From the NCBI RefSeq assembly GCF_000446015.1, contig NC_022093.1:1650001-1682000 (forward strand): DNA of 32,000 nucleotides. The letters are read 5' to 3'. The stretch is from Thermofilum adornatum. GTDB lineage: Archaea; Thermoproteota; Thermoprotei; Thermofilales; Thermofilaceae. A program made the translations under genes and the position numbers. Below are positions 1 through 30,731 of this stretch, one piece after another. Numbering within the stretch: the first letter of the stretch is position 1; each line of letters starts with the position of its first letter. The notes under the pieces are model-generated. The model saw only the letters and a program-made list of their open reading frames with translations. It was not told where the DNA came from and made no database searches.

Positions 1-111
1 AATACGAGCTGCATTTTTGGTTCGCGAAGTTTATTGCTGCAACTGAGAGGGGCAGGCAGGCTCTCAATAGGCCTGCTAGGGCGTTTAGGGTTTTGTACGG
101 GCTTGATTAGT

Positions 112-4312: not shown

Positions 4313-4474
4313 GGAAAATGAGAGAACTTTTTCTCTTATCCTCTGTAAGTCTTCACTTTGTCATTTAATAGCGAGGTACGTAGCTATACTAGCAATATAT
4401 CAAAATAACTTTCAGTGTTATTTTAGAAAATTATCTTTACAATAATTACCTTGAGTAATTATGGTGGCAAAGTA

Positions 4475-5233
4475 ATGATAAAGGACAAATGTTACATCTA
4501 TGGATCTATACATATCTTGTTACCTCATCTTGAAAATGCATTGGACAAGGTGGATGTCGTTTTGCTTGAGGGTTTTTTAATACGGGAATGGGAGAAATTG
4601 GTGAGGAAAGATCCTGTGACAATAGTGTCTATTTTAGGCGTGCTTTTTTCGTTATTAGTTGAGAAGATAGCTTTTGGAATAGCAAGATGGTACTATAAGG
4701 TATTCCGTGGTATAGAGTTCAAGGGGGATATGTTCTCCGTGGCGACGCTGGCAAAGGAAAGAGGAAAAATAATTGAAAGAACAGATTCTGACTTTCATGA
4801 AGTATATGCTTTGAAAAAGAGTGTCTACGTGGAAGTTTTCACTGTTTTTATTTTATTTTTAGTGGGGATTCCATTGCTTGTATTGATCTTATTGACGCTA
4901 TTCATTGAAATTATAATCACAGCTAATGGTATTTTTTATTGGGAATATTTTATTCAAATTTTCCAAGTGGGGATCCAGTCTGGAATTTTAGTGATGATGC
5001 AACCGGAGCAAGCTTTCAAACTTGCTACTTTACTAGTTACAGGTGGCTTGCTTCTCAGCGGGCCGATTTTTGCCTACAGAACAATTGACATCCGTGATTC
5101 CAAGGTGGTGGAAAGAGCAACTGAATTGGTCAATTCTGGTAAAACTGTTCTAATAGTGAGAGGAAAGATGCATGTAAATGGCATAGTTAGGGAATTAGAA
5201 AAGAGGGGCATTTATTGCAAAGAGATTAACTAG
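4475..5233 (+). CDS. TraB/GumN-like membrane protein (tentative)
   Basis: AT-rich ORF, with ATG at 4475 and an in-frame TTG at 4451. N-terminal YIYGSIHIL...VDVVLLEG and C-terminal LIVRGKMHVNGIVRELEKRGIY resemble the TraB/GumN GTxH...GAGHLxG...G signature. There are several central TM helices. Confidence 0.45.
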   Translation: MIKDKCYIYGSIHILLPHLENALDKVDVVLLEGFLIREWEKLVRKDPVTIVSILGVLFSLLVEKIAFGIARWYYKVFRGIEFKGDMFSVATLAKERGKIIERTDSDFHEVYALKKSVYVEVFTVFILFLVGIPLLVLILLTLFIEIIITANGIFYWEYFIQIFQVGIQSGILVMMQPEQAFKLATLLVTGGLLLSGPIFAYRTIDIRDSKVVERATELVNSGKTVLIVRGKMHVNGIVRELEKRGIYCKEIN

Positions 5234-6022: not shown

Positions 6023-6298
6023 ATGATAAGGGCTAATATAAGTAAGGATCTTGAGAGAAGGTTTAGGGAACTTGCGATGAGGAGGTTTGGATACGGAAAG
6101 GGCTCTCTGCAAAAAGCAGTCGAGGAAGCTATTGCGCGGTGGGTTTCATGGGTGGAGGAAGAGAGCTTAAAGTTTGAAGGGGACCCCGTGGAGGCTATTG
6201 ACGGGATCCTTGCGGACCTTGATGTTGATTCGGTGGAGCTTCAGCATAGGCTTAAGGAGTTCTGGGCCTCAAAGGTGCTCAAGGATGTACCTGGTTGA
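6023..6298 (+). CDS. vapB: Ribbon-helix-helix (CopG/VapB-type) antitoxin
   Basis: The start MIRANISKDLERRFRELAMRRFGYGKGSLQKAVEEAIARWV fits an RHH pattern. It overlaps the downstream PIN gene by 14 nt. A TATA-like cttttatgtc lies at 5989-5998. Confidence 0.7.
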   Translation: MIRANISKDLERRFRELAMRRFGYGKGSLQKAVEEAIARWVSWVEEESLKFEGDPVEAIDGILADLDVDSVELQHRLKEFWASKVLKDVPG

Positions 6299-6707
6299 TA
6301 CGAACATCTTTCTCGAGGTCATGCTTTCCCGTAGGAGGAAGGACGAGTGCAAACTCTTTTTGAAGATGCTGAGGGACGGCGAAATATTGGGAACCGTGAC
6401 CGATTTCTCGGTTCACTCAATAATGGTGCTCTTGGACAGACTTAACAGGCCCGAGAAGCTGAAGACTTTTCTCCTGAGCTTGACCGGGTACAGGGGTCTA
6501 GCTGTGCACTATACGTCTATTGCGGAGGAGGTTAGAGCGGTGGAATTGGCGCGGGAGAAGAAACTGGACATAGATGATGCACTGCAGTACGCTGTTGCTC
6601 TCTCTATTGGTGCAGATGCCATAGTTTCATTCGACGAGGACTTCAGTAACTTGGAGATACCGAGGCTGGAGCCGGTCGAAATCATTGATAAAAGGAAGAG
6701 CCATTAG
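6285..6707 (+). CDS. vapC: PIN-domain toxin VapC
   Basis: MYLVDTNIFLEV..., DIDDALQY and SFDEDF supply the acidic PIN residues in the expected order. The ORF-track N-terminal extension (6174-6284) overlaps the antitoxin and shows no homology. Confidence 0.85.
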   Translation: MYLVDTNIFLEVMLSRRRKDECKLFLKMLRDGEILGTVTDFSVHSIMVLLDRLNRPEKLKTFLLSLTGYRGLAVHYTSIAEEVRAVELAREKKLDIDDALQYAVALSIGADAIVSFDEDFSNLEIPRLEPVEIIDKRKSH

Positions 6708-6876
6708 TGAATTGAAAGTACCTTTTCTTAGCAAGCTTGGGTACTCCTAGACCTGCAACATAAAATTTGTGGAAATATGGACATGCATCAAACGATTTGG
6801 AGAAAGTGACGGGCCTTTCCTCAAAGGCTTTTTGTTAAGGGCTGTCCATGCTGTCTTCTGCTGAATATTTGGGAGG

Positions 6877-6890
6877 CTTTGCACGCGCTT
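6877..6890. repeat. Degenerate GC-palindrome motif copy (ctttgcacGCGCTt)
   Basis: It shares the ctttgcac left flank with the copy at 8688-8710, but the core is shortened. Confidence 0.4.
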
Positions 6891-6954
6891 GTTGATGTTT
6901 CTCCTTGAAGATTTTACATAAAATATATTTGATTGGTTTTCAATTTTTATTGTT

Positions 6955-7725
6955 GTGGAGGAGGACGACGACTTTTGGGTGTCCTCCATAGAGTTGTATC
7001 CGAGGGCTTCACGTAGACGTAGAGTTGTAAAGGCTATAGTTGTTCTCCTCGTTATGGGTTTTCTGGTTTACCTCGGGCTTCTTTATTATTCTATGACGAA
7101 TGTTGAGGTGAGTGTTGATAGGGTTGGGTTCTCTAGTCCGGACCAGTTGCTGAACATTGTTGCTAGTCGCCGTCTCAGTATAGATGTTTATCTTAACGTG
7201 AAGGGTAGAGGTGTTTTGCCTGTAGATGTGAAGAGTTTTTCTTCGGATATTTATCTCGAGGGGCAATATGTTGGCTTCGTGAAGAGTTCCCAGCCGTTCA
7301 CTATCGAGCCGGGGGAGTCCCGTCCTGTGCACTTGGTTTTGACTCTAGATGCTTCCTCTATATCGGCCGAAAGCCTGGCAAGCGTGTTGCAGTCGGTTAT
7401 TGACCACAACGGCGAGGTCATGGTTGCGCTTGATGGTAAGGTTGAGGTTTCGGCTTTGTTTTTCTCTCTAGACGTTCCAGTGAGACGTGAGACATATGTC
7501 TTGATTGCTCCTCCTTCTCCTAGGGTCGAACAAGCAGTTTGGAGTAAAACTTCGTGTAAAGCTGGGGAAAGTGTCGATTTTCAGGTGGTGGTGAGCAATG
7601 TTTACAGATCCCAGCGCCTTACTGGAACCTTAGAGGTTGCTGTACGGGAGGACGTTGCGCTTAGCCAAGACAGGGATGCCTCTGTATACACCTATCAACT
7701 TGATCTCGCTCCCGGAGAAAATTAG
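6955..7725 (+). CDS. Membrane-anchored LEA_2/LEA14-like beta-sandwich protein, 5' part of a gene interrupted by an in-frame TAG
   Basis: GTG start at 6955, followed by a basic stretch RRRR and a TM helix. The pattern VEVSVDRVGF...IDVYLNVKGRGVLPVDVKSFSSDIYLEGQYVG resembles LEA14. The ORF ends at TAG 7723-7725 in the middle of a repeat module. Confidence 0.6.
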   Translation: MEEDDDFWVSSIELYPRASRRRRVVKAIVVLLVMGFLVYLGLLYYSMTNVEVSVDRVGFSSPDQLLNIVASRRLSIDVYLNVKGRGVLPVDVKSFSSDIYLEGQYVGFVKSSQPFTIEPGESRPVHLVLTLDASSISAESLASVLQSVIDHNGEVMVALDGKVEVSALFFSLDVPVRRETYVLIAPPSPRVEQAVWSKTSCKAGESVDFQVVVSNVYRSQRLTGTLEVAVREDVALSQDRDASVYTYQLDLAPGEN

Positions 7726-7851
7726 ACGCTTAAAGGCACGTTTAAGACTTATGCAGGAATAGGTACGAGGGGATTCTTTCTGAAGGTTTTCTGGGACGGT
7801 AGAGTTATTAGCGAGCAGCCTCCCTTATATCCTCCTAGGCTACAGGTCATT

Positions 7852-8589
7852 GTGCCAAGGGCAGTGGTTAGGGTTATTGACGCATACTGGACAGTGGGTG
7901 GTCAGAGGGTTTCTAGCTGTAAAGTAGGAGACGTAGTAACAGCTCATATAATTTTGCATGCTGAAGGTAGTTCTGTTGAGGGGCCGTTGACTATTAGAGT
8001 TCGGAAAGACCTTGCATTTATGCCTGACAAGGATCTGCAGGTAGAAAACCAGTATATTTCAATTGGCGAGGGCCAAAATAGGGAGATAACAGTGACTTTT
8101 CGACCGGACGAGCCAAGCAGTAGCTCTTTGCGGGGATACTTCGTCGAATTGGAGGGTATAGTTTCGTGGACTATGCCCGAGAACTATCCGCCCAGGCTCC
8201 AGGTTTATGCAGCATCTCCGGTTCAGGGAACTTTGGTAGTGGAGTCCGCCTGGTGGACGGTTAACGGGAGGGTTGTAACAAGCGCCATTGTTGGGCAGGT
8301 TGTTACGGCTCATGTTCGGGTGAAAGCTGTTGGAGGCAACGTTCAGGAGGTTGTGCAGGTGAGGGTCCGCAGGGACCTGGCTTTACAGCCGGACACTGAT
8401 CTAGTAGCGAATAGCTTCAATGTGAAGCTTGAGAATGGCCAGTCGATGGAGCTCACGGTCACGTTTACGGCCTCCGAAAAGTCTGGCTTGAGTTTTAGGG
8501 GATACTTCCTTGAGGTAGATTTCCTGAACTCTCAGCGTACCTGGACTATGGAGAATTCCTACCCGCCAAGGCTGAAGGTTGAAGGCTAG
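7852..8589 (+). CDS. Tandem beta-sandwich repeat protein, 3' part of the same interrupted gene
   Basis: It lies in the same frame as 6955..7725. It contains two ~120-aa repeats, each ending RGYF(V/L)E...YPPRL(Q/K)V. The in-frame codons 7726-7851 encode the end of a third repeat (RGFFLKVFW...YPPRLQV). Confidence 0.6.
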   Translation: MPRAVVRVIDAYWTVGGQRVSSCKVGDVVTAHIILHAEGSSVEGPLTIRVRKDLAFMPDKDLQVENQYISIGEGQNREITVTFRPDEPSSSSLRGYFVELEGIVSWTMPENYPPRLQVYAASPVQGTLVVESAWWTVNGRVVTSAIVGQVVTAHVRVKAVGGNVQEVVQVRVRRDLALQPDTDLVANSFNVKLENGQSMELTVTFTASEKSGLSFRGYFLEVDFLNSQRTWTMENSYPPRLKVEG

Positions 8590-8687
8590 TTAAGTTAAAG
8601 AATCTTGGGGACGTGCCTAAGAGGGATTACAAACAATGAAAATTTTCTTTGCCTTTTTAACCATGTTCTGTTATGCTCTTCTTCAAG

Positions 8688-8710
8688 CCTTTGCACTTAG
8701 CGCGCGCTAG
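8688..8710. repeat. GC-palindrome motif copy (cctttgcacTTAGCGCGCGCTAg)
   Basis: It contains the perfect 12-bp palindrome TAGCGCGCGCTA at 8698-8709. Confidence 0.65.
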
Positions 8711-8953
8711 GGAGAGGCGTAGAAAAAAATTATTTAAAGATTTTCGTACATTGGTTTTTGGTTTTTCATTTTACTGTGAAAAGCTTTATAAATCTTTAGT
8801 TTCAGTATGTTTTTAGTGCGTAGGAATTAGCGTAACTATTACTGAAGAACAGTTGAAATTAGTACTAGATAAGCTGGACCTAATAAGGATTGAACTTTTT
8901 AAACTCAGAGCTATGCTTCTGCTCAAGGAAGAGTTAAGTGAAAAGATATGAGA

Positions 8954-8971
8954 AGCGCGCGAAGCGCTTAG
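8954..8971. repeat. GC-palindrome motif variant (AGCGCGCGAAGCGCTTAG)
   Basis: Direct reading, intergenic. Confidence 0.5.
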
Positions 8972-8995
8972 TGGTGGAGGTTCCTAACCGGGCGG

Positions 8996-9178
8996 ATGGG
9001 GATGAGGGACGTTGTTGAGAGGTATGTAGAGCTGAGGTTATCAAGCGGTGTTTCTAGGGAAGAGTATATCCGCTATATGAATATCAATGTGGACGAAATC
9101 GTAGAATACGATATCGACAGGGAGGCTGAGGCCCTATGGGGAAACAGGAGAAAGGCTCGTGAAAGACGCCAGTTCTAG
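8996..9178 (+). CDS. hypothetical small protein
   Basis: 60-aa ATG ORF in a decayed intergenic region with no recognisable motif. Confidence 0.25.
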   Translation: MGMRDVVERYVELRLSSGVSREEYIRYMNINVDEIVEYDIDREAEALWGNRRKARERRQF

Positions 9179-9336
9179 ACTAGCGTGCTTTTACAGAGAA
9201 CTTACATACAGCTAGATACTCCTAGACATTAGCATGGGATGGTCAGACGAGGATCTTTAAGGTTGGAGTTTTGCCTCTGCACGGTGACTACTTAGAGATG
9301 ATTTGGGAAAGCCGCAGACCATTTCATCTTGTTTTT

Positions 9337-9345
9337 TGCGCGCTA
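9337..9345. repeat. GC-palindrome motif half-copy (tGCGCGCTA)
   Basis: Direct reading. It lies in intergenic DNA upstream of vapBC-2. Confidence 0.45.
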
Positions 9346-9462
9346 CTGCCTAAAGGTTAAATGCTACCCAACAGGAACAAAAATTCGTTGTTATGATTAG
9401 GATAGACCTTTTATAGTTGGTATAAATAGGTAAACCTTATATCTAACTACATTTAAGTCTAC

Positions 9463-9699
9463 ATGAGTTTCATGAGCTATGTGACTGTATCTGCGAAAAT
9501 TCCCAGGCGCCTGAAGGAGATGCTAGAGCGGTATGGTATCAAGCCGGGACCCGTGATCAGGAAGGCTCTTGAGGAGGAGGTTAGGAAGCGTGTATTGGAG
9601 GAACTCGAGGAGAAGGCTAAGGAGCTAAGCGCCAGGCTAAGTCACATAAGTGACGAGGAGGTAGCATCTCTTATTCGTGAAGATAGGGAGGGGAGGTAA
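9463..9699 (+). CDS. vapB: VapB-type antitoxin
   Basis: VTVSAKIPRRLKEMLERYGI...VIRKALEEEVRKR is a typical archaeal VapB N-terminus. The PIN gene starts 3 nt after its stop. An alternative ATG lies at 9472. Confidence 0.75.
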   Translation: MSFMSYVTVSAKIPRRLKEMLERYGIKPGPVIRKALEEEVRKRVLEELEEKAKELSARLSHISDEEVASLIREDREGR

Positions 9700-9701
9700 A
9701 G

Positions 9702-10103
9702 ATGTACCTGTTTGATGCCAGTGCTATAGTCAACTTAGCTAAGCGGGGCTTACTCAAGCCGCTAGGAGAGGGTTTAAGCCTTGACCTTGCAGTGTACGAG
9801 GCGCTTAACGCGGTGTGGAAGGAGCATGTGTTGCAGAAAAGGATAGATGCAGATACTGCTAGAGGCCTCGTAGAAATCTTGATGGGTGCGTTAAACGTGG
9901 TTCCCTTAGAGAGTATTAAAGGAGTTGAGATGGAGGTGTATGAGTTGGCATCGAGGGAGAGGCTAACAGTGTATGATGCCTCTTATCTATACATTGCGCG
10001 CAGAGATAAGTTAACTTTAGTATCCGATGATGATAAGCTTCTTTCGAAGGCTTCACGCTACGTGGGAACAGCTAGAACAATGAATATTTTGAAGCGGTTC
10101 TAA
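9702..10103 (+). CDS. vapC: PIN-domain toxin VapC
   Basis: MYLFDASAIVNL..., LTVYDASYLYIA and LVSDDDKL fit the PIN pattern. It is a paralog of 13520..13933. Confidence 0.85.
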   Translation: MYLFDASAIVNLAKRGLLKPLGEGLSLDLAVYEALNAVWKEHVLQKRIDADTARGLVEILMGALNVVPLESIKGVEMEVYELASRERLTVYDASYLYIARRDKLTLVSDDDKLLSKASRYVGTARTMNILKRF

Positions 10104-13295: not shown

Positions 13296-13520
13296 GTGTC
13301 TACTGAAGTGCTATCTGTTAGGGTCAGGAGAGAGCTTAAGGAGGAAGCTTTGAGGCTGGGAATCGATGTTAGGAGTGTTATTGAGAGGGCTCTCGAGGAG
13401 GAGGTAAGAAAGGCGAAGAAGGAGAAGTTCAGGGAGTTGCTCGAGGAAGCCCTAAAGGGTTGCGACATAACGGTTGAAGAATGGGTTAGGGCAGTAAAGG
13501 AAACTAGGAGGGAACATTAA
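13296..13520 (+). CDS. vapB: VapB-type antitoxin
   Basis: LSVRVRRELKEEALRLGIDVRSVIERALEEEVRK is a paralog of 9463..9699. Its stop overlaps the PIN start (TAATG). Confidence 0.75.
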   Translation: MSTEVLSVRVRRELKEEALRLGIDVRSVIERALEEEVRKAKKEKFRELLEEALKGCDITVEEWVRAVKETRREH

Positions 13521-13933
13521 TGGTTGAGTACCTGCTTGACGCCTCTGCACTTTATCCACTCATGTTGAAGATGAAGGATAAGCTTTTCGACTACTTAAAT
13601 CTCTTTGTAGTGCTGGATCTGACAGTATATGAGATTGGCAACGTGATTTGGAAGGAGAGTCGGGTAGGCAGGGTTAGGGCTCCTAAGGCTTTAGCGATAG
13701 CATTCGCAGAGGTATTTAGGGAAGTTAAGGTTGTCAGATTGAGGGACGAGGAAACAGCGGACGTCTTAGAGCTGGCTTTGGCGGAGGAAATAACCTTCTA
13801 TGATGCGGCTTACCTGTACGCAGCTAGAAAGCTCCGCTTAAGGCTTGTGACCGAGGACTCGGATTTGAAAAAGTACCCAGAATCTGTAGGCTTAGAAGAG
13901 CTCGTTGCAGGGCTAGAGCGTTCGAGGCGTTAG
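13520..13933 (+). CDS. vapC: PIN-domain toxin VapC
   Basis: MVEYLLDASALYPL, ITFYDAAYLYAA and LVTEDSDL fit the PIN pattern. Confidence 0.85.
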   Translation: MVEYLLDASALYPLMLKMKDKLFDYLNLFVVLDLTVYEIGNVIWKESRVGRVRAPKALAIAFAEVFREVKVVRLRDEETADVLELALAEEITFYDAAYLYAARKLRLRLVTEDSDLKKYPESVGLEELVAGLERSRR

Positions 13934-14900: not shown

Positions 14901-14928
14901 TCTCCTCTCCGTAGCTTTTTTGGCACTT

Positions 14929-15741
14929 ATGAGTCAAGAAAAAGTCGTTCACATTGTTACCGTGGGGACGAGCATTGTTAGGAATATAGCGCAAAATGTT
15001 TCTGGACAAAGCGTCTCTAGCGAGGTTTTAGAGAAATTCAAGAGGTGGGCTCAGGCTTCTCCCAGGAGCAGAGAGGACGCTGAAGCTGGTGAGAGGGCTT
15101 GTAGCGGCTGCGAGGAGTTCGAGGCTGGGCTGAGGATTCTTGCCAGCAAGCCGTATGAGGTGAGCGCTGAGCTTAACGCTATGAGGTCTTACCTGGAGGA
15201 GGGAATGGTCGACGCCGTTGTGCTTCTTTCGTCTGATACTGGTGTGTCTGAGTTCTCTGCGAAGATTCTTGAGGCTTATCTCTCCTCGGAGGGGAAACTT
15301 GTAGAAACAATTAGGGTGCCGGGCCTCGGCCTGGACTTTCAGGAGGGTCTGATTAACCTGGTGGACACAGTTGCAAGCGTTGTGGCAAGGTATAGAGGTC
15401 TGGGTTATAGGGCATGGATAAACCTTACGGGGGGCTTCAAGCTGGAGGCGGCTGTCCTGTATCTCGTCTCCTGTCTGTCTAGGCTGGGCGTCGAGAAGGC
15501 CTACTATATACATGAGGCCATGAGGAGCACTGTGGAGGTCCCAGCTATACCTGTAAAGCTTGAGGACTCCCTGCTGAGAACTGTCGAGCGGCTAGGCGAT
15601 CAAGAGGTCGAACTAGAGGAGGCACGTAAAAGGATAGGCGAAGAGATGCTAGATGTCCTCCTTAGGAGTGGGCTTGTCGAAAGGAGTGGCACAACTGTGA
15701 GGATAAGGAAGTGGGTATTGCACTTGGTGAGAGGCTTCTAG
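14929..15741 (+). CDS. CARF-domain protein (Cas_APE2256-like) with C-terminal winged-helix domain
   Basis: N-terminal HIVTVGTSIVRN, SAELN and NLTGGFK (15421-15441) are CARF/APE2256-family hallmarks. The C-terminal ~60 aa (MLDVLLRSGLVERSGTTVRIRKW) look like a wHTH. An in-frame TTG lies at 14920. Confidence 0.75.
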   Translation: MSQEKVVHIVTVGTSIVRNIAQNVSGQSVSSEVLEKFKRWAQASPRSREDAEAGERACSGCEEFEAGLRILASKPYEVSAELNAMRSYLEEGMVDAVVLLSSDTGVSEFSAKILEAYLSSEGKLVETIRVPGLGLDFQEGLINLVDTVASVVARYRGLGYRAWINLTGGFKLEAAVLYLVSCLSRLGVEKAYYIHEAMRSTVEVPAIPVKLEDSLLRTVERLGDQEVELEEARKRIGEEMLDVLLRSGLVERSGTTVRIRKWVLHLVRGF

Positions 15742-22950: not shown

Positions 22951-24108
22951 ATGAATTATAAACGTTCAAAAGTTAGGGCAAGCCTAAAACAGCTAGTTGC
23001 AAGTACCTCGTTGCATTTTGAACCTTGCAGTTTAAAGGGGAAAATGCAAAAACCACGGGTAGCAGATGGTGAGTATGCTCAAATTTTTGTAAAGCAAGAT
23101 TATCATGTAGTATTTACTCATGACTGGTTCAATAGGTCGACAGGCAACTATGGATGCGCCTATCTTGTAAGATTCGAGGAGCCAAGAGAGGTTGAGGGTT
23201 CTTTCTGGGATTTTCTGCACAACCGGAGTTACAAGGCAAGAGTTTGGACGAGTAGCCTGCACGTATTTTACGACGCTAAAAAGGAGAGAATTGTCCTAGT
23301 GGATCCCATCGTTTCTGGTTCCCTAAAGAGTGAGGGACTAGCGGATCATGAGGGAGCTCCTATAGACCTATATGGGAAAGAGCATTTCCTTTTAGGTGAA
23401 TTCTGGCTTGCTGGACTTGGAGGGAAGCTAAAGATATATGAGACTTGGGAAGGAAACCAAGCCACAATTGTTGGCTATTTGGGTTCAAATGTTGAGCCAA
23501 GGTTCTCGGGAAAAGCCTTCACTGCCAGCGCTTTCAATCTCAGGTCTCTTTGGGCTGAGTACTATTTCTCGCGCCTAGTTCACCCTCTTAGTGGCCTAGC
23601 CGAAGTCTCCATAGATTCCTCGATAACCTACAATTACGACTTCCAGTCCGAATATGTCTCCGCGAGAAACATTGACTGGCCCGTGTCATTTATATTCAAG
23701 GGATTCCACATGGCAGGAGAAGTTAAAAGCTACTTTTTTGGCGAGACACCTTTCGGGAACGAGATGAAGATGCTTGTGAAGACAAGCGCTTCCTGGACGG
23801 GAGACAGGGGAACAAAGGGACTCATCTATCTCCCTCTGATTAATGGGTATCTCTACGGACATATGCGTCTCTATAGAATAGGCGAAGACCTTGTAGCAGG
23901 TACCTCTCATCTTGACCAATTTCCCGTAGAGTCTTGGAGCGGATACTCTATACTTGCGAGGAAAATTTTTGTAGAAATGGCCTCGATTCGAGGGTTAAAC
24001 GTAAAGGAAAGATTTTCCTATCTATATAACAGGGAGGGCCCAATATTTGAAGATAATCATCCAAGGTTGCATTCAGGCTATGTCAGCCTCATAAGAAAAC
24101 ACAGCTAG
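22951..24108 (+). CDS. hypothetical protein (ORFan, soluble)
   Basis: 385-aa ATG ORF with no TM segment, no signal peptide and no motif I recognise. Its composition is AT-rich. Confidence 0.6.
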   Translation: MNYKRSKVRASLKQLVASTSLHFEPCSLKGKMQKPRVADGEYAQIFVKQDYHVVFTHDWFNRSTGNYGCAYLVRFEEPREVEGSFWDFLHNRSYKARVWTSSLHVFYDAKKERIVLVDPIVSGSLKSEGLADHEGAPIDLYGKEHFLLGEFWLAGLGGKLKIYETWEGNQATIVGYLGSNVEPRFSGKAFTASAFNLRSLWAEYYFSRLVHPLSGLAEVSIDSSITYNYDFQSEYVSARNIDWPVSFIFKGFHMAGEVKSYFFGETPFGNEMKMLVKTSASWTGDRGTKGLIYLPLINGYLYGHMRLYRIGEDLVAGTSHLDQFPVESWSGYSILARKIFVEMASIRGLNVKERFSYLYNREGPIFEDNHPRLHSGYVSLIRKHS

Positions 24109-24136
24109 AAGATATGCAGTGAGATTTAACTAGCCG

Positions 24137-24754
24137 ATGCTTGGCTTTATCCATATGCTGTATATAAATGTCTCGGAGAGAGTGCTACAAAAGATTAGCA
24201 CGTGGAAGAAAGTCTGGCTCCCCTACGTCCTTTATACAAGCCTCCACAACCCAAAATATGTTTACCTCTTTGACTGCGTATTTTCAAGTAAACTAAGGAA
24301 CGACTCATTGAGCCTCTTATTGTCTAGACGGATCGAGAAAGAGTACCTGGCAAGCTCTGAAAATATTCCCTTTAAGTTTCCCCTCTACCCTGACAAGGAT
24401 TGCCAAAGAGATGTTCTAGAATATCTTACAAATATGTATAGAGAACAGTCGCTCCAAATGCATCAAAATGTTTCTTTTGAACAAACTGACTACTTGGCCG
24501 TAAGAATGCTAGGCGTACCTAGCGCTATGAGAAAATTAGAGGAGTATTTCAGGCAATTCTCAAAGAGAAGTCCTTTGCAAGGAATCTTGAACGATATCCA
24601 GAATATGGAGCTCGAGCATAAAGGAATCGCATACTCTTTGTTTGTTTTTGATGGAAAAATGACATATAATGTCATTGGTGAAAAATTGATACAGATGAAG
24701 ATTCTAGAAAAATATTTGACAGGGGGACAGGTTTTGGAGCAACTTTTCCCTTAA
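24137..24754 (+). CDS. hypothetical protein (ORFan)
   Basis: 205-aa ORF starting 28 nt after the previous gene on the same strand, with no recognisable motif. An alternative ATG lies at 24155. Confidence 0.5.
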   Translation: MLGFIHMLYINVSERVLQKISTWKKVWLPYVLYTSLHNPKYVYLFDCVFSSKLRNDSLSLLLSRRIEKEYLASSENIPFKFPLYPDKDCQRDVLEYLTNMYREQSLQMHQNVSFEQTDYLAVRMLGVPSAMRKLEEYFRQFSKRSPLQGILNDIQNMELEHKGIAYSLFVFDGKMTYNVIGEKLIQMKILEKYLTGGQVLEQLFP

Positions 24755-24793
24755 ACGGGAACGCTCAGTCAAGCGTCTAAATTGAACTAAAAA

Positions 24794-24801
24794 ATATAAA
24801 T
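24794..24801 (+). promoter_or_regulatory. TATA box for the ParA-like/GT2 gene pair
   Basis: atataaat is centred about 27 nt upstream of ATG 24825. Confidence 0.45.
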
Positions 24802-24824
24802 ACTTCCTTTTCGGAAATATAAAC

Positions 24825-26186
24825 ATGCGTAGATATGTTTTCCTAAAGGTTAAAGGTGGTGTTGGCGGCTCATCACTAGCACTCTCGCTTGGCAAGTTTC
24901 TAGCGCTAAGAGGTTCAAAAGTCTTAATTGTAGACGCGGATCCAGTAAGCACAATATCTGAGCTTGTTGGACACAAGGCTAAGGGCATTATCCAGGCTGT
25001 AAAAGAAAATCTTGACTATAGGACATCACTAAAAACAATTGAGACTGGAAAGGGGACTCTAACAGTTTTGAGGATATATAGTGAAAGGATTCCCCTAGAA
25101 GTAGAGAAGCGAGACTTATTGTCTTTTAAAGACAAGTTCTCTGAGACATATACGAGAGCGCTTAATAGCGAAAATGTTGACTATGTTATTGTTGACCATG
25201 AGGCGGCCCTGTCTTATGAAGATCCACTATTCTCTATTGAAAGAAAAAATTTCCACGAGACATACAAGGGGATCCAAGAAGGGATAATAATGGTTCTCGA
25301 GCCGACCCCAGTGTCTCTCAGCTCTACAAAGAGGTATATTGATGCACTACAGGCTAAAGAACAGCTACCGTTTTCGGCCATCATAGTTAACAAAGTTCCC
25401 ACAGACGAAGAAACTATGACAAGGGCTAGAGAGATACTGGAGGAAGCCATGGAATATAGTGGCGCCAAGGTTGGCGCGCTTATCCCTATTATTAATGACT
25501 ATGTTCTCTATAGACCCGGGGCTTTCACGCTTTACCCGATTCCCGTAGGCGTCATGGAAATAGCGCTAGCCTTAGAAAGAAACAAAAAGATAATGTATAC
25601 CCCTTCACATCTAGACGCCTTAAAGAAAGCAGTTTATATAAGGTCCACTATGCTTATTGAGACAGACTCTTCCAATATTCTCAAATGCATACAGGAGATA
25701 CTAGAGGTTCCAAAGAAAATATACTCTGAGGAATTCAAGGCCTTAATTTTCTCAACACAGAGATTCTCGACCCTAATAGCAGAATCAAGCTATGTTGACT
25801 ACTATGGAACAACATATTCCTATGAAGCAACCAAGCTAAAAACAGGGAGCGTAGAAGAAGTTATAAGACTAGCCAAAAAGCTGGCACAGGACTTCATTAG
25901 AGAGATTGAGGCAGACGATACAGAAAAAATTATAGTAATAGCAAGTACAAATGACCTCGAACCCATATACCCCTCACAAGAGGCGCCCCAGCTCTCTAGG
26001 GCATTTTGGAAGGAGTTCCTAGAAAGCCTTAAGCATGGAACAAAAAATGCTTCTATAATCCTCCTATGTGAGCCTATTGGAGCACAGTGCCAAGCATTGA
26101 GGGGACTGGTAGATATAGCTATACGTTCAGACTACAAAGAGGGGGTTCCAAAATGCACAGTTCTCCAATCAAAGATCCCTGGCTAG
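24825..26186 (+). CDS. ParA/MinD-superfamily protein with lysine-less P-loop (BcsQ-like) and ~220-aa C-terminal extension
   Basis: The N-terminus is VFLKVKGGVGGSSLALSLGKFLALRGSKVLIVDADP (KGGVGGSS at 24852-24875). A Walker B-like YVIVDHE and IIVNKV follow. The C-terminal half is unassigned. Confidence 0.7.
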   Translation: MRRYVFLKVKGGVGGSSLALSLGKFLALRGSKVLIVDADPVSTISELVGHKAKGIIQAVKENLDYRTSLKTIETGKGTLTVLRIYSERIPLEVEKRDLLSFKDKFSETYTRALNSENVDYVIVDHEAALSYEDPLFSIERKNFHETYKGIQEGIIMVLEPTPVSLSSTKRYIDALQAKEQLPFSAIIVNKVPTDEETMTRAREILEEAMEYSGAKVGALIPIINDYVLYRPGAFTLYPIPVGVMEIALALERNKKIMYTPSHLDALKKAVYIRSTMLIETDSSNILKCIQEILEVPKKIYSEEFKALIFSTQRFSTLIAESSYVDYYGTTYSYEATKLKTGSVEEVIRLAKKLAQDFIREIEADDTEKIIVIASTNDLEPIYPSQEAPQLSRAFWKEFLESLKHGTKNASIILLCEPIGAQCQALRGLVDIAIRSDYKEGVPKCTVLQSKIPG

Positions 26187-26190
26187 AAAC

Positions 26191-27696
26191 ATGAAGAGAA
26201 TAATAAATTACCTCGTCTTTTTTTCGCCTTTCCTCGCGGCACTAATTGCAACTTATCTTACCTTCAGCGACGTTTGGCTGGTGTGGCTTGCATATGGCGT
26301 TTGGCTAGCAATGTTTACGGGTTTCTTCGTATTTCTAAACTACACACTTGTGACACTTCGATACAGAAAGTATGATGCAAGGTACGTAGGGAAACCCCTA
26401 AACCTTAGGATTGCGGCCTTTGTCACGTCATTTAATGAGGATCCAGGTATTATTAAGGACACGCTTCTCTCAGTTAAGGCCGCACTTAAGGGTAGAGGCG
26501 ACGTGTATCTTTTGGACGACTCGACCAGGCCCGAGATAGTCAAAGAAATGGAGGAATTTTGTAAAGTTAATGGTATATATTATATCCATAGGACTGACCG
26601 CAGAGGCTTCAAGGCTGGAGCCATAAACAATGCCCTAAGGCTTGTTGGAGACAAGTATGACCTCATAGCTATATTCGACGCTGACCAGCGTCCAACCTCA
26701 GGCTTCTTTGATGCGGTAATTCCATTCTTTAGAGACGAGAATGTCGCATTTGTCCAGGTTCCTCAAAAATACACCGAGATAGACTCCTATGTCTCTCAGG
26801 GCGCAAAGTACCAACAGGAGCCCTTCCTAAGGATAATAATGCGTGGGAGAAGCGAGTCGTCGGCTTTTTCCCTGGGTTCTGGCACGGTTTTCCGGGCAAG
26901 CGTCCTTAAGGAAGTCGGGGGCATGGACGAGTCGAGCATAACTGAGGACGCGGCAACCTCTGTAAAGATTCACTCCATGAAATATCTCTCCCCCTACCTG
27001 GACGAGGAGCTTATCTGGTATGGAGAGCCGCCTCCAGACGCTTCTGCATATGTACAGCAGCAGAGCAGATGGTCTTTTGGCTATTTCCAGCTTACACCTA
27101 ATCTTTTAAAGATGAGCCTCGACATTCAGGTCTTCTTTGACTATGCTGCTGGCTTTTATTATTGGCTGAAAGAGGGTATCCTTACATTGTTCGAAATAAT
27201 TGCGCCAATAGTCTTCCTATTGTTAAGGAGACCCTACATCAAGCTTGACCCGTTCCTTTATGCCATTGTCTACTTTCCCTATTTGTTCTTCTCGACGGCC
27301 ATATTCACCTATAGCATACGGAGAAAAACCTATGGTCTTAGGGGCTTCCTTCTCCACCAGTTCGTAGAATACATAGCCTTCTTCGGGTTAACGGTCTCAT
27401 TTTTCTCCTGGCTTGCTAGGCGTAAACGTCCATTCAAGGTGACCCCGAAAGGCAGGGGGAGAAGAGCGTTCGGCGTTGTTGTACCCCACGTTTTCTTTGA
27501 CATTCTCTTGCTTTTATCAATATTTGCTGGTGTCGCGTGGTACCCATCTGCACCAATGATTCTGCAAGCCGCGATACTGGTAAACCTCTTCTGGGCTGTT
27601 TGGCACTACTTCTTCTTGACGGGCTCGATAATAGTTGCACTGTCGGTTCCAAGAGAAAGAGAAGAAGCAAGATACGTTGAGAAAATAAAGAAATAA
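26191..27696 (+). CDS. Processive family-2 glycosyltransferase, cellulose-synthase-like (BcsA/CesA type), no PilZ domain
   Basis: Two N-terminal TM helices, then LLDDS, FDADQ (DAD at 26677-26685), VQVPQKY, TED (26941-26949), QQQSRW (27055-27072) and the FxVTxK motif FKVTPK (27433-27450) within the C-terminal TM bundle. It starts 4 nt after the ParA-like stop. Confidence 0.85.
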   Translation: MKRIINYLVFFSPFLAALIATYLTFSDVWLVWLAYGVWLAMFTGFFVFLNYTLVTLRYRKYDARYVGKPLNLRIAAFVTSFNEDPGIIKDTLLSVKAALKGRGDVYLLDDSTRPEIVKEMEEFCKVNGIYYIHRTDRRGFKAGAINNALRLVGDKYDLIAIFDADQRPTSGFFDAVIPFFRDENVAFVQVPQKYTEIDSYVSQGAKYQQEPFLRIIMRGRSESSAFSLGSGTVFRASVLKEVGGMDESSITEDAATSVKIHSMKYLSPYLDEELIWYGEPPPDASAYVQQQSRWSFGYFQLTPNLLKMSLDIQVFFDYAAGFYYWLKEGILTLFEIIAPIVFLLLRRPYIKLDPFLYAIVYFPYLFFSTAIFTYSIRRKTYGLRGFLLHQFVEYIAFFGLTVSFFSWLARRKRPFKVTPKGRGRRAFGVVVPHVFFDILLLLSIFAGVAWYPSAPMILQAAILVNLFWAVWHYFFLTGSIIVALSVPREREEARYVEKIKK

Positions 27697-27722
27697 AAAG
27701 AAAACTCTTCCCGTTAAGCCGT

Positions 27723-28166
27723 TCAGGCTTGGTCAAGATTTTTGAGGTAGTCTATGTTTTCCCTCTCAGAGGGGTCGGGCTCTTTTACCGAGAACCATTC
27801 GTCGAGTATTTCTTTGGCTACCTCTTCTGAGAGCAACCTCGCGCTTAGCGCTAGAACGTTGGCATCGTTCCACAGCCTTGCGCCTCTTGCGTTCTTTGCA
27901 TCTGTGCATAGCGCTGCTCTTATTCCCTTTACCTTGTTAGCCGCTATGCTTACACCTGTCCCCGTATAGCACATAACTATGCCCGTATCCGCCTTGCCAG
28001 ATGCTACTAGCTGTGCAACTTCCTGCCCGACCTTTGGCCATGGATAAGGCTTGCCTGTCAGCGCCGAGCCGACCAGGATTACTTCGTGCCCCCTCTTTTT
28101 CAGCTCCTGGACAATGAAGGATACAATAGAGTAGTTGTCATCGGAGCCAAAAGCTACCCTCATCAC
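27723..28166 (-). CDS. rpiB: Ribose-5-phosphate isomerase B / RpiB-LacAB family sugar-phosphate isomerase
   Basis: MRVAFGSDD..., GIVMCYTGTGVSIAANKVKGIRAA and WNDANVLAL match the family. GTG at 28166 is followed directly by ATG at 28163. Confidence 0.85.
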   Translation of the reverse strand: MMRVAFGSDDNYSIVSFIVQELKKRGHEVILVGSALTGKPYPWPKVGQEVAQLVASGKADTGIVMCYTGTGVSIAANKVKGIRAALCTDAKNARGARLWNDANVLALSARLLSEEVAKEILDEWFSVKEPDPSERENIDYLKNLDQA

Positions 28167-29720: not shown

Positions 29721-30013
29721 CGTGCAGTGAAGTTCTGTAGGTATGTTTGAATTGTACACGCTGTATCAAAACATTGTCCTAACATTTGCACGGATCAAGA
29801 GAGTAAAGATAACACTACCACCTGAAGAAAAGTCCAGATAATTTGGTTTCCTTATATAGGATAGTTGGAGACCCGTTTTACCTCCTATCGTGTGTATTAA
29901 TACTCATTATAAGTTTTTCACAGAGCTTTAAAGCAAAACTTCAGCTGGTAGTTATAGAAAACAAGTTACTGAAAAACCTTTTTATACTCTCTGGAGTAAT
30001 TAAGGTGAAGAGT

Positions 30014-30301
30014 ATGAGTGAGAAAGTGAAAACAAGCCTGTTTATAAATCGAGCTCTATGGGAGGAGTTTAAGCTCAAAGTAGGAAGCCGTGTTGGGCTG
30101 AGAGCTTTGAGCAGAGCTGTGGAAGAACTTCTAGAAGATGAGGTTGCCGAGTTAGTGGTAGCAGATGAGCTCTCAAAAATGGTAGAGACCTCATCACTCA
30201 TTGAAGTCAAGCCTGTAAAGCCCAAGGTTCCCACTGACGCCAGCAAGGCTATAAGGGAGCTGAGGGAGAGAGAAAATGAAAAACCCAATAGTGTACCTTG
30301 A
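30014..30301 (+). CDS. vapB: RHH-type antitoxin (VapB-like)
   Basis: MSEKVKTSLFINRALWEEFKLKV...LSRAVEELLEDEV fits an RHH pattern. It overlaps the downstream PIN gene by 26 nt. A TATA-like tttttatac lies at 29979-29987. The ORF-track N-terminal extension (29843-30013) is unsupported. Confidence 0.6.
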   Translation: MSEKVKTSLFINRALWEEFKLKVGSRVGLRALSRAVEELLEDEVAELVVADELSKMVETSSLIEVKPVKPKVPTDASKAIRELRERENEKPNSVP

Positions 30302-30731
30302 TTCCAGCACAATCGTTAAACGTTACGTAGAAGAAGCTGGTAGCGAGGTTGCCCGCGATGTATACAACTCAGCATTGGCTGGCAACCTAACTCTTTCGTT
30401 TTCAGCCTGGAATATTGGGGAGGTGCTGGGGGTTCTAGAGAGGTATCGAAGAAGAGCGTGGTTGGACGATGAAAGCTATGTAGCTGCAAGGATGATGTTT
30501 ATCGGAGAAACTATAAGATTGTTGAAGCTTGGAGCTTTGATCCTTGTGCCTATCCGAGTTAGACTGCTCGCAGAGGCTTGGAGGCTCCAAGAAAAATACC
30601 ACATTTACCAGGCTGATGCACTTCAAGTGGTTTCAGCCAAGTACGTAAAGGCGAACAAGATGTATACGGGGGACAGGAGTCTGCATAATGTAGCTCTTGC
30701 AGAAGGGCTTCAGAGTGTCATACTTAAGTGA
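30276..30731 (+). CDS. vapC: PIN-domain toxin VapC
   Basis: VYLDSSTIVKRYVEEAGSE, YHIYQADALQV and MYTGDRSL fit the PIN pattern. Confidence 0.8.
   Translation: MKNPIVYLDSSTIVKRYVEEAGSEVARDVYNSALAGNLTLSFSAWNIGEVLGVLERYRRRAWLDDESYVAARMMFIGETIRLLKLGALILVPIRVRLLAEAWRLQEKYHIYQADALQVVSAKYVKANKMYTGDRSLHNVALAEGLQSVILK

Follow-up and report, generated by a model that had tools for sequence, protein, structure and literature searches.

A 32,000-nt stretch of the Thermofilum adornatum 1910b chromosome (NC_022093.1, positions 1,650,001 to 1,682,000), analyzed at its full length and referred to here as the window, carries four consecutive open reading frames (ORFs) on its forward strand. The two distal genes encode a protein with a ParA-like N-terminal half, which we call the partner, and a family 2 glycosyltransferase (GT2); they are preceded by two frames termed ORF1 and ORF2 (Table 1). 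The original prediction, made from the sequence letters, placed all four ORFs exactly where we find them and read them as a single exopolysaccharide synthesis and secretion system. Our analysis narrows that reading, as only the partner/GT2 pair (24825-27696) is conserved among the archaeal loci that were compared, and on this evidence it looks like a long-standing archaeal module. In public records, the GT2 protein is AGT36207.1 (N186_09355; NCBI name "cellulose synthase catalytic subunit"), the partner is AGT36206.1, an "ArsA-related P-loop ATPase" (some JGI records use "BcsQ," "MinD-like," or "CooC1"), and ORF1 is AGT36204.1, annotated as "hypothetical."

The partner stop codon (TAG, 26184-26186) and the GT2 start codon (ATG at 26191) are separated by four nucleotides, as originally described, and the TATA-like box attributed to the pair is present and conserved. 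It is kept as TTTAAATA in L002, a contig from a 79-89%-identical relative, and the nucleotide homology of L002 to the window starts within the box, at 24797. The box is a predicted promoter element, and its distance from the partner ATG implies a leaderless or near-leaderless mRNA for a presumptive two-gene operon. A hairpin followed by a run of T, located by a consensus scan downstream of the GT2 stop codon and within the 3′ end of the convergent rpiB gene, is a possible operon end. Scans with bacterial-type promoter and terminator models returned sites that were not enriched over shuffled sequence, and such models are not relevant to an archaeon.

Table 1. Features of the synthase locus, in window coordinates
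Feature	Position	Strand	Description
ORF1	22951-24108	+	385 aa; neighbor outside the conserved module; predicted cytoplasmic, without signal peptide
ORF2	24137-24754	+	205 aa; Thermofilum only; outside the conserved module
TATA-like box ATATAAAT	24794-24801 (as ATATAAATA: 24794-24802)	+	Candidate promoter element, 23-30 nt 5′ of the partner ATG
Partner (ParA-like gene)	24825-26186	+	453 aa
Partner N-terminal ParA/MinD/ArsA-like (SIMIBI) domain	24825-25499	+	aa 1-225; Pfam CbiA and PDB matches
Partner C-terminal, likely RecA/KaiC-like domain	25500-26186	+	aa 226-453; synteny and AF2/Foldseek
BcsA-like GT2, putative synthase/translocase	26191-27696	+	501 aa; NCBIfam CelA and PDB BcsA matches
Hairpin and T-run	27713-27743	+	3′ of the GT2 stop, within the convergent rpiB 3′ end; possible operon end, consensus scan only

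The glycosyltransferase and its upstream partner

The GT2 protein carries the full motif set of processive synthases. The motifs DDS (D109-S111, 26515-26523), DAD (D163-D165, 26677-26685), TED (residues 251-253, 26941-26949), and QQQSRW (residues 289-294, 27055-27072), together with the gating-loop motif FKVTPK (residues 415-420, 27433-27450), all lie on the codons originally assigned to them, and each pairs with the matching motif in an alignment with BcsA (LLDDS/ILDDG, FDADQRP/FDCDHVP, ITEDAATS/VTEDAHTS, QQQSRW/GQRIRW, and PFKVTPKG/KFNVTAKG). The residues D109/D110, D163xD165, T251-E-D253, Q290-Q-x-R293-W294, and F415-x-V-T-x-K420 are invariant among 17 archaeal homologs. In NCBIfam, the best model is CelA (TIGR03030, E = 2.7e-47, residues 29-496 against positions 86-576 of 714), followed by E. 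coli-type BcsA; weaker matches were obtained to PgaC (4e-8), NodC (0.03), and MdoH. All six distinct solved sequences that match at E < 1e-3 are BcsA proteins (7lby, E = 6.4e-35, residues 74-491). Hydropathy analysis indicates six or seven hydrophobic helices, two of them N-terminal and four or five C-terminal and flanking the gating loop, so that the layout reads as two N-terminal transmembrane helices, a GT-A domain, further transmembrane helices, the gating loop, and two C-terminal transmembrane helices. The homology to BcsA extends across the membrane region up to residue ∼491 of 501, which suggests that GT2 forms a BcsA-like transmembrane channel. The protein stops 10 residues past the aligned region, and there is therefore no C-terminal PilZ domain, in agreement with the original prediction of a PilZ-less, BcsA-type processive synthase. 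Compared with L002, the ratio of nonsynonymous to synonymous substitution rates (dN/dS) is 0.09.

The match to known cellulose synthases is one of superfamily. The GT2 protein scores far under the equivalog cutoffs (161.2 versus 699.1 bits for TIGR03030 and 135.8 versus 992 for PRK11498), and we therefore assign it, from its motifs and alignment, to the BcsA-type processive synthase superfamily without calling it a cellulose synthase; its product may be another β-glycan. The low score also enters into an alternative in which the enzyme makes no secreted polymer and instead glycosylates lipids or builds short oligosaccharides, as GT21-, MdoH-, or Dol-P-type enzymes do, with the partner regulating that activity. 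Weak matches to Pfam Glyco_transf_21 and NCBIfam MdoH would fit such a role, as would the lack of any archaeal cellulose attributed to this enzyme family in the literature searched. The MdoH matches, however, are confined to the N-terminal ∼140 residues, whereas the full processive motif set, including QxxRW and FxVTxK in a transmembrane bundle, matches BcsA in an alignment that reaches residue 491 and does not vary within the family. We consider this alternative highly improbable.

Homologs of GT2 at 40-64% identity are plentiful in Sulfolobales, Thermofilaceae (Infirmifilum), Fervidicoccus, Conexivisphaera/Nitrososphaeria, Thermoplasmata, and Archaeoglobus. In two loci, the GT2 gene is split into two ORFs beside an intact partner, owing to a frameshift or a sequencing error (L013:9947-11509 from Sulfolobaceae and L051:5397-6909 from a Thermoplasmatales metagenome-assembled genome [MAG]).

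The N-terminal half of the partner matches Pfam CbiA (PF01656, 44 bits versus a cutoff of 25.4, E = 2.5e-11), with ArsA and AAA_31 likewise above cutoff. Its solved relatives, found with the single sequence and with a 10-sequence profile, are Get3/ArsA, Soj, Mrp/NBP35, and MinD. The Walker A motif KGGVGGSS is located at 24852-24875 (K10 to S17), as reported, with G15 in place of the P-loop lysine. The Walker A′ acidic residues D37/D39 are kept, and the signature lysine K10, S16, D39, the Walker B residue D124, and the base-binding N189 are invariant among ten ParA-bearing partners. Because these other pocket residues are invariant, the domain is predicted to bind nucleotide still, with weak or absent hydrolysis.

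The lysine-less Walker A holds for the window protein but not as a trait of the family. The G15-type substitution occurs in the window, L001, L002, L004-L006, L085, and protein P0093, a set that takes in Thermofilum, Infirmifilum, a Thermoprotei MAG, and hot-spring Nitrososphaeria. L009, L013, L017, and L084 have the lysine, and the canonical KGGVGKST or KGGIGKST is kept by orthologs from Sulfolobaceae, Sulfolobus acidocaldarius, a Desulfurococcales MAG, and a Thermoplasmata MAG. The P-loop is yet more degenerate in Caldisphaera and two Nitrososphaeria loci, and the ParA domain is fully degenerate in L008, L011, and L019. Because orthologs elsewhere keep the canonical motif, the loss represents a derived state; the lysine is ancestral and disappeared in the Thermofilaceae/Nitrososphaeria clade.

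This history bears on the description of the partner as BcsQ-like. In BcsQ, too, this position of the P-loop has no lysine (GVRGGVGTTT; PMC8892547), as originally noted. As a statement of family membership, the description fails: the partner scores below cutoff for PF06564 (16.6 versus 21.3, over residues 7-67 only) and TIGR03371 (21.8 versus 157.85), and the 60 best solved relatives of the ParA-like domain profile do not include BcsQ. The partner was thus rejected as a BcsQ family member, and the resemblance reflects parallel loss of the same lysine, not common ancestry of the trait.

The C-terminal half had been described as matching nothing nameable. This is correct for Pfam, where no family (e.g., the KaiC-like ATPase family PF06745) matches the window domain, but not more broadly, since the domain has syntenic homologs in ∼33 loci and a RecA/KaiC-like predicted fold. 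Other members of the family match only generic P-loop Pfam families, around Walker A. In a 26-sequence alignment, the Walker A motif G(L/S/P)PG(I/T/L)GK(T/L) occupies the same column in Thermoplasmata homologs and L017, at the expected strand-helix junction; the window protein reads LIETDSSN at this site, and the motif is lost. The family profile touches RecA, KaiC, and PilT at Walker A only. Among the conserved features are a hydrophobic strand (hhhh-x-x-ND) ending in ND(L/I)xP (NDLEP in the window), a nearly invariant EFW motif (F394-W395, 26004-26009), and a C-x6-C pair (C415, 26067-26069, and C422, 26088-26090). The pair, a possible disulfide, metal, or redox site, is invariant in all ParA-fused partners and occurs in Thermoplasmata forms but not in Archaeoglobi forms.

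Structure prediction points in the same direction. The AlphaFold2 (AF2) model of the C-terminal domain (mean predicted local distance difference test [pLDDT], 63; predicted TM-score [pTM], 0.68) consists of alternating strands and helices with a terminal β-hairpin. The model of the full-length partner is poor (pLDDT 49) because only three sequences covered the ParA half. When the full-length and C-terminal models were searched against the PDB with Foldseek, the top matches were all members of the RecA superfamily, namely, phage UvsX, S. acidocaldarius FlaH/ArlH (4yds), KaiC, RadA/Rad51 paralogs, and EssC (probability ∼1.0, E = 1e-4 to 1e-3, TM-scores 0.4-0.5). Together with the Walker A motif in relatives, these matches support what had been a weak hint of a degenerate RecA/KaiC-like fold, and such an origin is likely for the C-terminal half. 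The dN/dS values against the 79%-identical L002 ortholog are 0.13 for the ParA half and 0.21 for the C-terminal half, which indicates purifying selection on both; the two are therefore regarded as functional pseudo-ATPase-like domains and not as decaying genes.

Conservation of the gene pair across archaea

To trace the pair, 80 genomic loci were gathered with the GT2 profile, two complete genomes were added, and all six-frame ORFs were searched locally. Word-indexed homolog searches returned little: two close relatives with the full partner, and one Thermoplasmatota subgroup with the C-terminal domain profile. In the local search, homologs of the C-terminal domain were recovered at phmmer E values of 1e-9 to 7e-4 in the first pass (database of ∼10,000 ORFs) and 1e-35 to 1e-57 after iteration. 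Such a homolog immediately precedes a ∼500-aa GT2 in 32 loci beyond Thermofilum and in one probable divergent case (hhalign E = 3e-4), and the proposed link between the ParA-like gene and GT2 is thereby supported by synteny. The pair spans at least four phyla (Thermoproteota, Thermoplasmatota, Archaeoglobi/Methanocellales, and a Micrarchaeota MAG). It was found in Thermofilaceae, Sulfolobales (including S. acidocaldarius), Desulfurococcales, Caldisphaera, Nitrososphaeria/Conexivisphaerales, Thermoplasmata, Aciduliprofundum, Archaeoglobales, Methanocellales, and Micrarchaeota. A full-length partner adjoins GT2 upstream in L004-6, L009, L013, L017, L019, L084 (S. acidocaldarius, with the pair at 6697-9503), and L085 (Infirmifilum uzonense), and in most loci, the partner and GT2 frames overlap or stand no more than ∼10 nt apart.

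The neighborhoods of the pair are otherwise variable. When ORFs within 6 kb of GT2 were grouped by single-linkage clustering over 32 loci, the only recurrent real families were GT2 and the partner, the remaining clusters being shadow frames within the GT2 gene. No BcsB, BcsC, or BcsZ analogue is therefore among the recurrent neighbors, as originally proposed, and the phosphohexomutase downstream of the T. adornatum pair, suggested as a source of sugar precursors, is not a conserved neighbor. These data also refute the reading in which the adjacency has no functional meaning and the partner is a chromosome- or cargo-positioning ParA located beside GT2 by chance. Generic ParA/MinD family matches are what that reading would predict, but the arrangement is conserved in at least four archaeal phyla with overlapping or nearly overlapping frames and otherwise unrelated neighborhoods, and what is conserved alongside GT2 is a domain other than the ParA part. 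We assign it next to no probability.

Three partner architectures were found: a ParA-like domain joined to the C-terminal domain (415-483 aa), a ∼100-aa helical N terminus joined to the C-terminal domain (276-310 aa), and the C-terminal domain alone (178-230 aa). The ParA-like half is thus optional across lineages, and the C-terminal domain appears to be the part that always accompanies GT2.

This plasticity is informative about a further explanation, in which the partner is a true BcsQ-type sorting or positioning factor driven by ATP, its ParA half being essential with slow hydrolysis and its C-terminal domain a mere adaptor. Apart from the P-loop lysine, the nucleotide pocket is invariant, the N-terminal domain is the more strongly constrained of the two (dN/dS 0.13), and the best solved relatives include the membrane-protein targeting ATPases Get3/ArsA. 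Bacterial BcsQ, moreover, works without the lysine: it forms ATP-bound sandwich dimers on the cytoplasmic side of BcsA, is essential for cellulose secretion, and influences BcsA levels (PMC8892547). On the other hand, partners from Thermoplasmata, Archaeoglobi, Methanocellales, Micrarchaeota, and many Nitrososphaeria have no ParA domain, and in the three loci named above this domain is fully degenerate; it therefore cannot provide a universal essential activity; membership in the BcsQ family also fails. We regard this explanation as possible but doubtful.

Longer synthases show a different arrangement. All six archaeal GT2s of 650-700 aa were without a partner in the nearby DNA (loci L028, L032, L039, L047, L049, and L050; proteins P0086, P0091, P0096, and P0112 are of the same type), and those tested end in a rubrerythrin/ferritin-like domain (PF02915, E down to 1e-5). 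A KaiC-like domain fused to the long GT2s was considered and ruled out, as the tail is rubrerythrin-like. The partner and the fused rubrerythrin-like domain are thus mutually exclusive, which is the pattern expected if they are alternative cytoplasmic modules of the same synthase core, comparable to PilZ in bacteria; the latter of the two archaeal modules is perhaps iron or redox related. An apparent fusion of partner and GT2 was also evaluated. In proteins P0093 and P0089, from the same species as L005, an in-frame deletion joins partner residues 1-112 to GT2 from residue ∼172 and takes out DDS, DAD, and the first transmembrane helices. With both motifs deleted, these two proteins were rejected as a Rosetta-stone fusion and are evidence only that the genes adjoin in that lineage too; the allele is probably a dead variant within a metagenomic population.

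ORF1, ORF2, and the composition of the locus

ORF1 and ORF2 match nothing in Pfam, NCBIfam, PHROGs, PADLOC, or the PDB, and neither contains a predicted transmembrane segment or signal peptide. The description of both as ORFans applies to ORF2, which has no relatives outside Thermofilum, but not to ORF1, for which an exhaustive HMMER search returned 47 distant relatives aligned to residues ∼210-382 (the C-terminal ∼170 aa). Almost all of these are ∼210-230 aa in length with N-terminal signal peptides and constitute an unnamed secreted family; no Pfam family matches them. The family motifs are YNYDF, NVDWPV, DRGTK, HMRxY, and THYDxxPxESWSGY, and the conserved His, Asp, Trp, and Tyr residues suggest an enzyme or binding domain. 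By its predicted features, ORF1 would be a cytoplasmic, N-terminally extended member of this otherwise secreted family. An internal repeat in ORF1 was ruled out because its two halves lack similarity.

The original prediction held that the whole block is AT-rich and was acquired as a unit. Base composition supports the first point in part. The GC contents of ORF1, ORF2, and the partner are 0.445, 0.388, and 0.421, and all three are below the flanks (0.48-0.51) in both GC and GC at third codon positions (GC3). GT2 is ordinary: its GC content is 0.461 (GC3 0.52), and that of the window is 0.465. A further gene, at 4451-5233, is lower than all four, with only 0.37. That gene has a weak TraB/PrgY/GumN match. 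A mobile-element origin was rejected, as no plasmid or phage matches were found for the locus.

Close relatives differ in how much of the locus they share. On the 97%-identical contig L001, all four genes are kept, with ORF1 called as two. The homology of L002 to the window extends over 24797-27737; in this contig, ORF1 is absent, and ORF2 is a C-terminal remnant. A 240-bp fragment of the rpiB 3′ end (L002:1575-1814, corresponding to window 27732-27970) is now located upstream of the partner promoter in L002, beside truncated ABC permease genes. The contig ends where rpiB would start, and the arrangement may represent a local rearrangement or duplication, or an assembly artifact.

These comparisons bear directly on whether the four genes form one exopolysaccharide system, acquired horizontally as an AT-rich island, with ORF1 and ORF2 supplying missing secretion or modification parts. 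The genes share a strand with short gaps, three of them are below the flanks in GC, all four are retained in L001, and the C-terminal domain of ORF1 belongs to an otherwise secreted family. Against this, neither ORF1 nor ORF2 adjoins GT2 in any examined locus outside Thermofilum; the homology of L002 starts at the TATA box of the pair, with ORF1 gone and ORF2 a remnant; ORF1 is split in L001; and the pair has its own conserved, predicted promoter. In addition, the composition of GT2 is ordinary, the pair occurs in Infirmifilum and across Thermoproteota amid unrelated neighborhoods, plasmid and phage matches are lacking, and ORF1 and ORF2 have no detectable transmembrane segment or signal peptide. 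The four-gene reading is largely refuted by synteny and is, in our estimate, very unlikely; acquisition as a unit is not supported. ORF1 and ORF2 look like lineage-specific neighbors of the pair.

Several other genes in the window are noted for completeness. An SNF2-type helicase with a NOV_C domain is located at 34-3075, and a Cas_APE2256 (CARF-type) CRISPR-associated gene is located at 14920-15741, with no CRISPR array noticed nearby. Four genes encode PIN-domain (VapC-like) proteins (6174-6707, 9702-10103, 13520-13933, and 30276-30731); the last overlaps the end of a small ORF (29843-30301) that looks like its antitoxin.

Proposed mechanism and comparison with known systems

We propose that the pair is a two-gene operon in which a BcsA-type β-glycan synthase is encoded with a dedicated cytoplasmic subunit that replaces PilZ/BcsQ-type control, and we place the probability of this reading at about 60%. 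The two genes would be transcribed together from their own TATA box. GT2 would polymerize a nucleotide sugar on the cytoplasmic face of the membrane, most likely UDP-glucose into a β-glucan, and pass the chain across the single archaeal membrane via a channel of its own; BcsB and BcsC would not be needed in a single-membrane archaeon. BcsA relies on a fused PilZ domain and cyclic di-GMP (c-di-GMP) to control its gating loop. The archaeal partner, translated from the same mRNA 4 nt upstream, may work with GT2 in place of that control. Its RecA/KaiC-like domain would be the constant part, docking on the cytoplasmic face of the synthase and taking over the roles of PilZ, BcsQ, BcsR, and BcsE in gating, stabilization, and assembly. 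In Thermoproteota, the preceding ParA/MinD-like domain may add ATP-dependent dimerization or positioning; it probably binds ATP and dimerizes, as lysine-less BcsQ does, with little or no hydrolysis. Because the T. adornatum subunit has lost both the KaiC-like P-loop and the ParA lysine, it would act mainly as an allosteric, assembly, or positioning factor and not as an energy source. Contact between the partner and GT2, the identity of the docking domain, nucleotide binding, and the nature of the polymer are points that we infer.

Several observations weigh against this proposal. In two loci, the partner is encoded on the opposite strand in divergent orientation, and no partner was detected at ∼7 loci of short archaeal GT2s for which sufficient upstream sequence was available. 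The case for contact between partner and GT2 draws on synteny and homology. The structural models are only moderately confident, and the RecA/KaiC assignment depends on the consistency of the fold searches and a short Walker A match. The failure of GT2 to reach the cellulose synthase equivalog cutoffs leaves room for a β-glycan other than cellulose as its product, and no polysaccharide phenotype for the module in any archaeon was found in the literature searched.

A bolder version of the proposal can also be formulated. RecA/KaiC domains usually oligomerize, as rings. The partner might form such rings and gather several synthases into a multichannel terminal complex, with the ParA-like domain setting its position in the cell and the gating being independent of c-di-GMP. 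We consider this version a long shot; if true, archaea would have, assembled from pseudo-ATPases, a counterpart of the cellulose terminal complexes of the rosette or linear type. Redox sensing through the invariant cysteine pair might be part of it, and a redox or iron signal is a speculation at which that pair and the rubrerythrin-fused paralogs hint.

The synthase is of a known kind that is already annotated automatically as "cellulose synthase"; what appears to be new is the conserved KaiC-like partner. A KaiC-like partner with or without a ParA domain, its domain plasticity, and its P-loop decay were undescribed in the literature searched, although an earlier mention, including in arCOG annotations, is possible. 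The synthesis and export of matrix polysaccharides by archaea are largely unexplained, and the two-gene module proposed here would offer a testable entry point, as the same gene pair is present in the genetically tractable S. acidocaldarius (L084). The BcsA-type synthases of thermophilic and acidophilic archaea are PilZ-less and come with either a separate KaiC-like subunit, with or without ParA, or a fused rubrerythrin-like domain. The partner remains under selection despite the repeated erosion of its NTPase motifs. It may also illustrate how a membrane machine can retain pseudo-ATPases as dedicated subunits, and its missing lysine has a bacterial parallel in BcsQ.

Among characterized systems, BcsA (R. 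sphaeroides 4hg6/4p00; E. coli 7lby and 9fmv) is closest to GT2. Both have a GT-A domain with D, DxD, TED, and QxxRW motifs and an FxVTxK loop, and the channel region aligns over GT2 residues 74-491, which suggests coupled polymerization and translocation. Unlike BcsA, GT2 has no PilZ domain and hence no c-di-GMP switch, has only two N-terminal transmembrane helices, has no bcsB, bcsC, or bcsZ gene nearby, and attains 161 bits versus the CelA cutoff of 699. BcsQ resembles the partner in its ParA/MinD fold, in the location of its gene immediately 5′ of the synthase gene, and in the replacement of the P-loop lysine at the same position (Thr in BcsQ, Gly in the KVKGGVGGSS of the partner). The partner differs in keeping the signature lysine, where BcsQ has Arg; in having lost the P-loop lysine within the archaeal family; in having no BcsR, BcsE, or PilZ to bind; and in being fused to a 228-aa, likely RecA/KaiC-like domain.

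Synthases that function without PilZ are known from bacteria. The mixed-linkage glucan synthase BgsA (PMC5567048) is a BcsA relative without a recognizable PilZ domain. Compared by description, BgsA and the curdlan-type synthases share with GT2 a cellulose-synthase-like core that lacks PilZ and is regulated through another module; they differ in being bacterial, in responding to c-di-GMP through their own C-terminal region, and in having no ParA/KaiC-like partner. For the C-terminal domain of the partner, the nearest parallel is ArlH (FlaH) of the archaellum motor (S. acidocaldarius, 4yds), a single RecA/KaiC-type domain of ∼200-230 aa that is among the closest structural matches of the model and that, as we propose for the partner, is an accessory subunit of a membrane machine and not a stand-alone enzyme. 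There is no family match between the two at the sequence level, where only the Walker A region aligns with KaiC/RecA. In contrast to ArlH, the partner has lost Walker A in the window protein and several lineages, has motifs of its own (NDhxP, EFW, and CxxxxxxC), and would serve a glycan synthase instead of a type IV filament ATPase.

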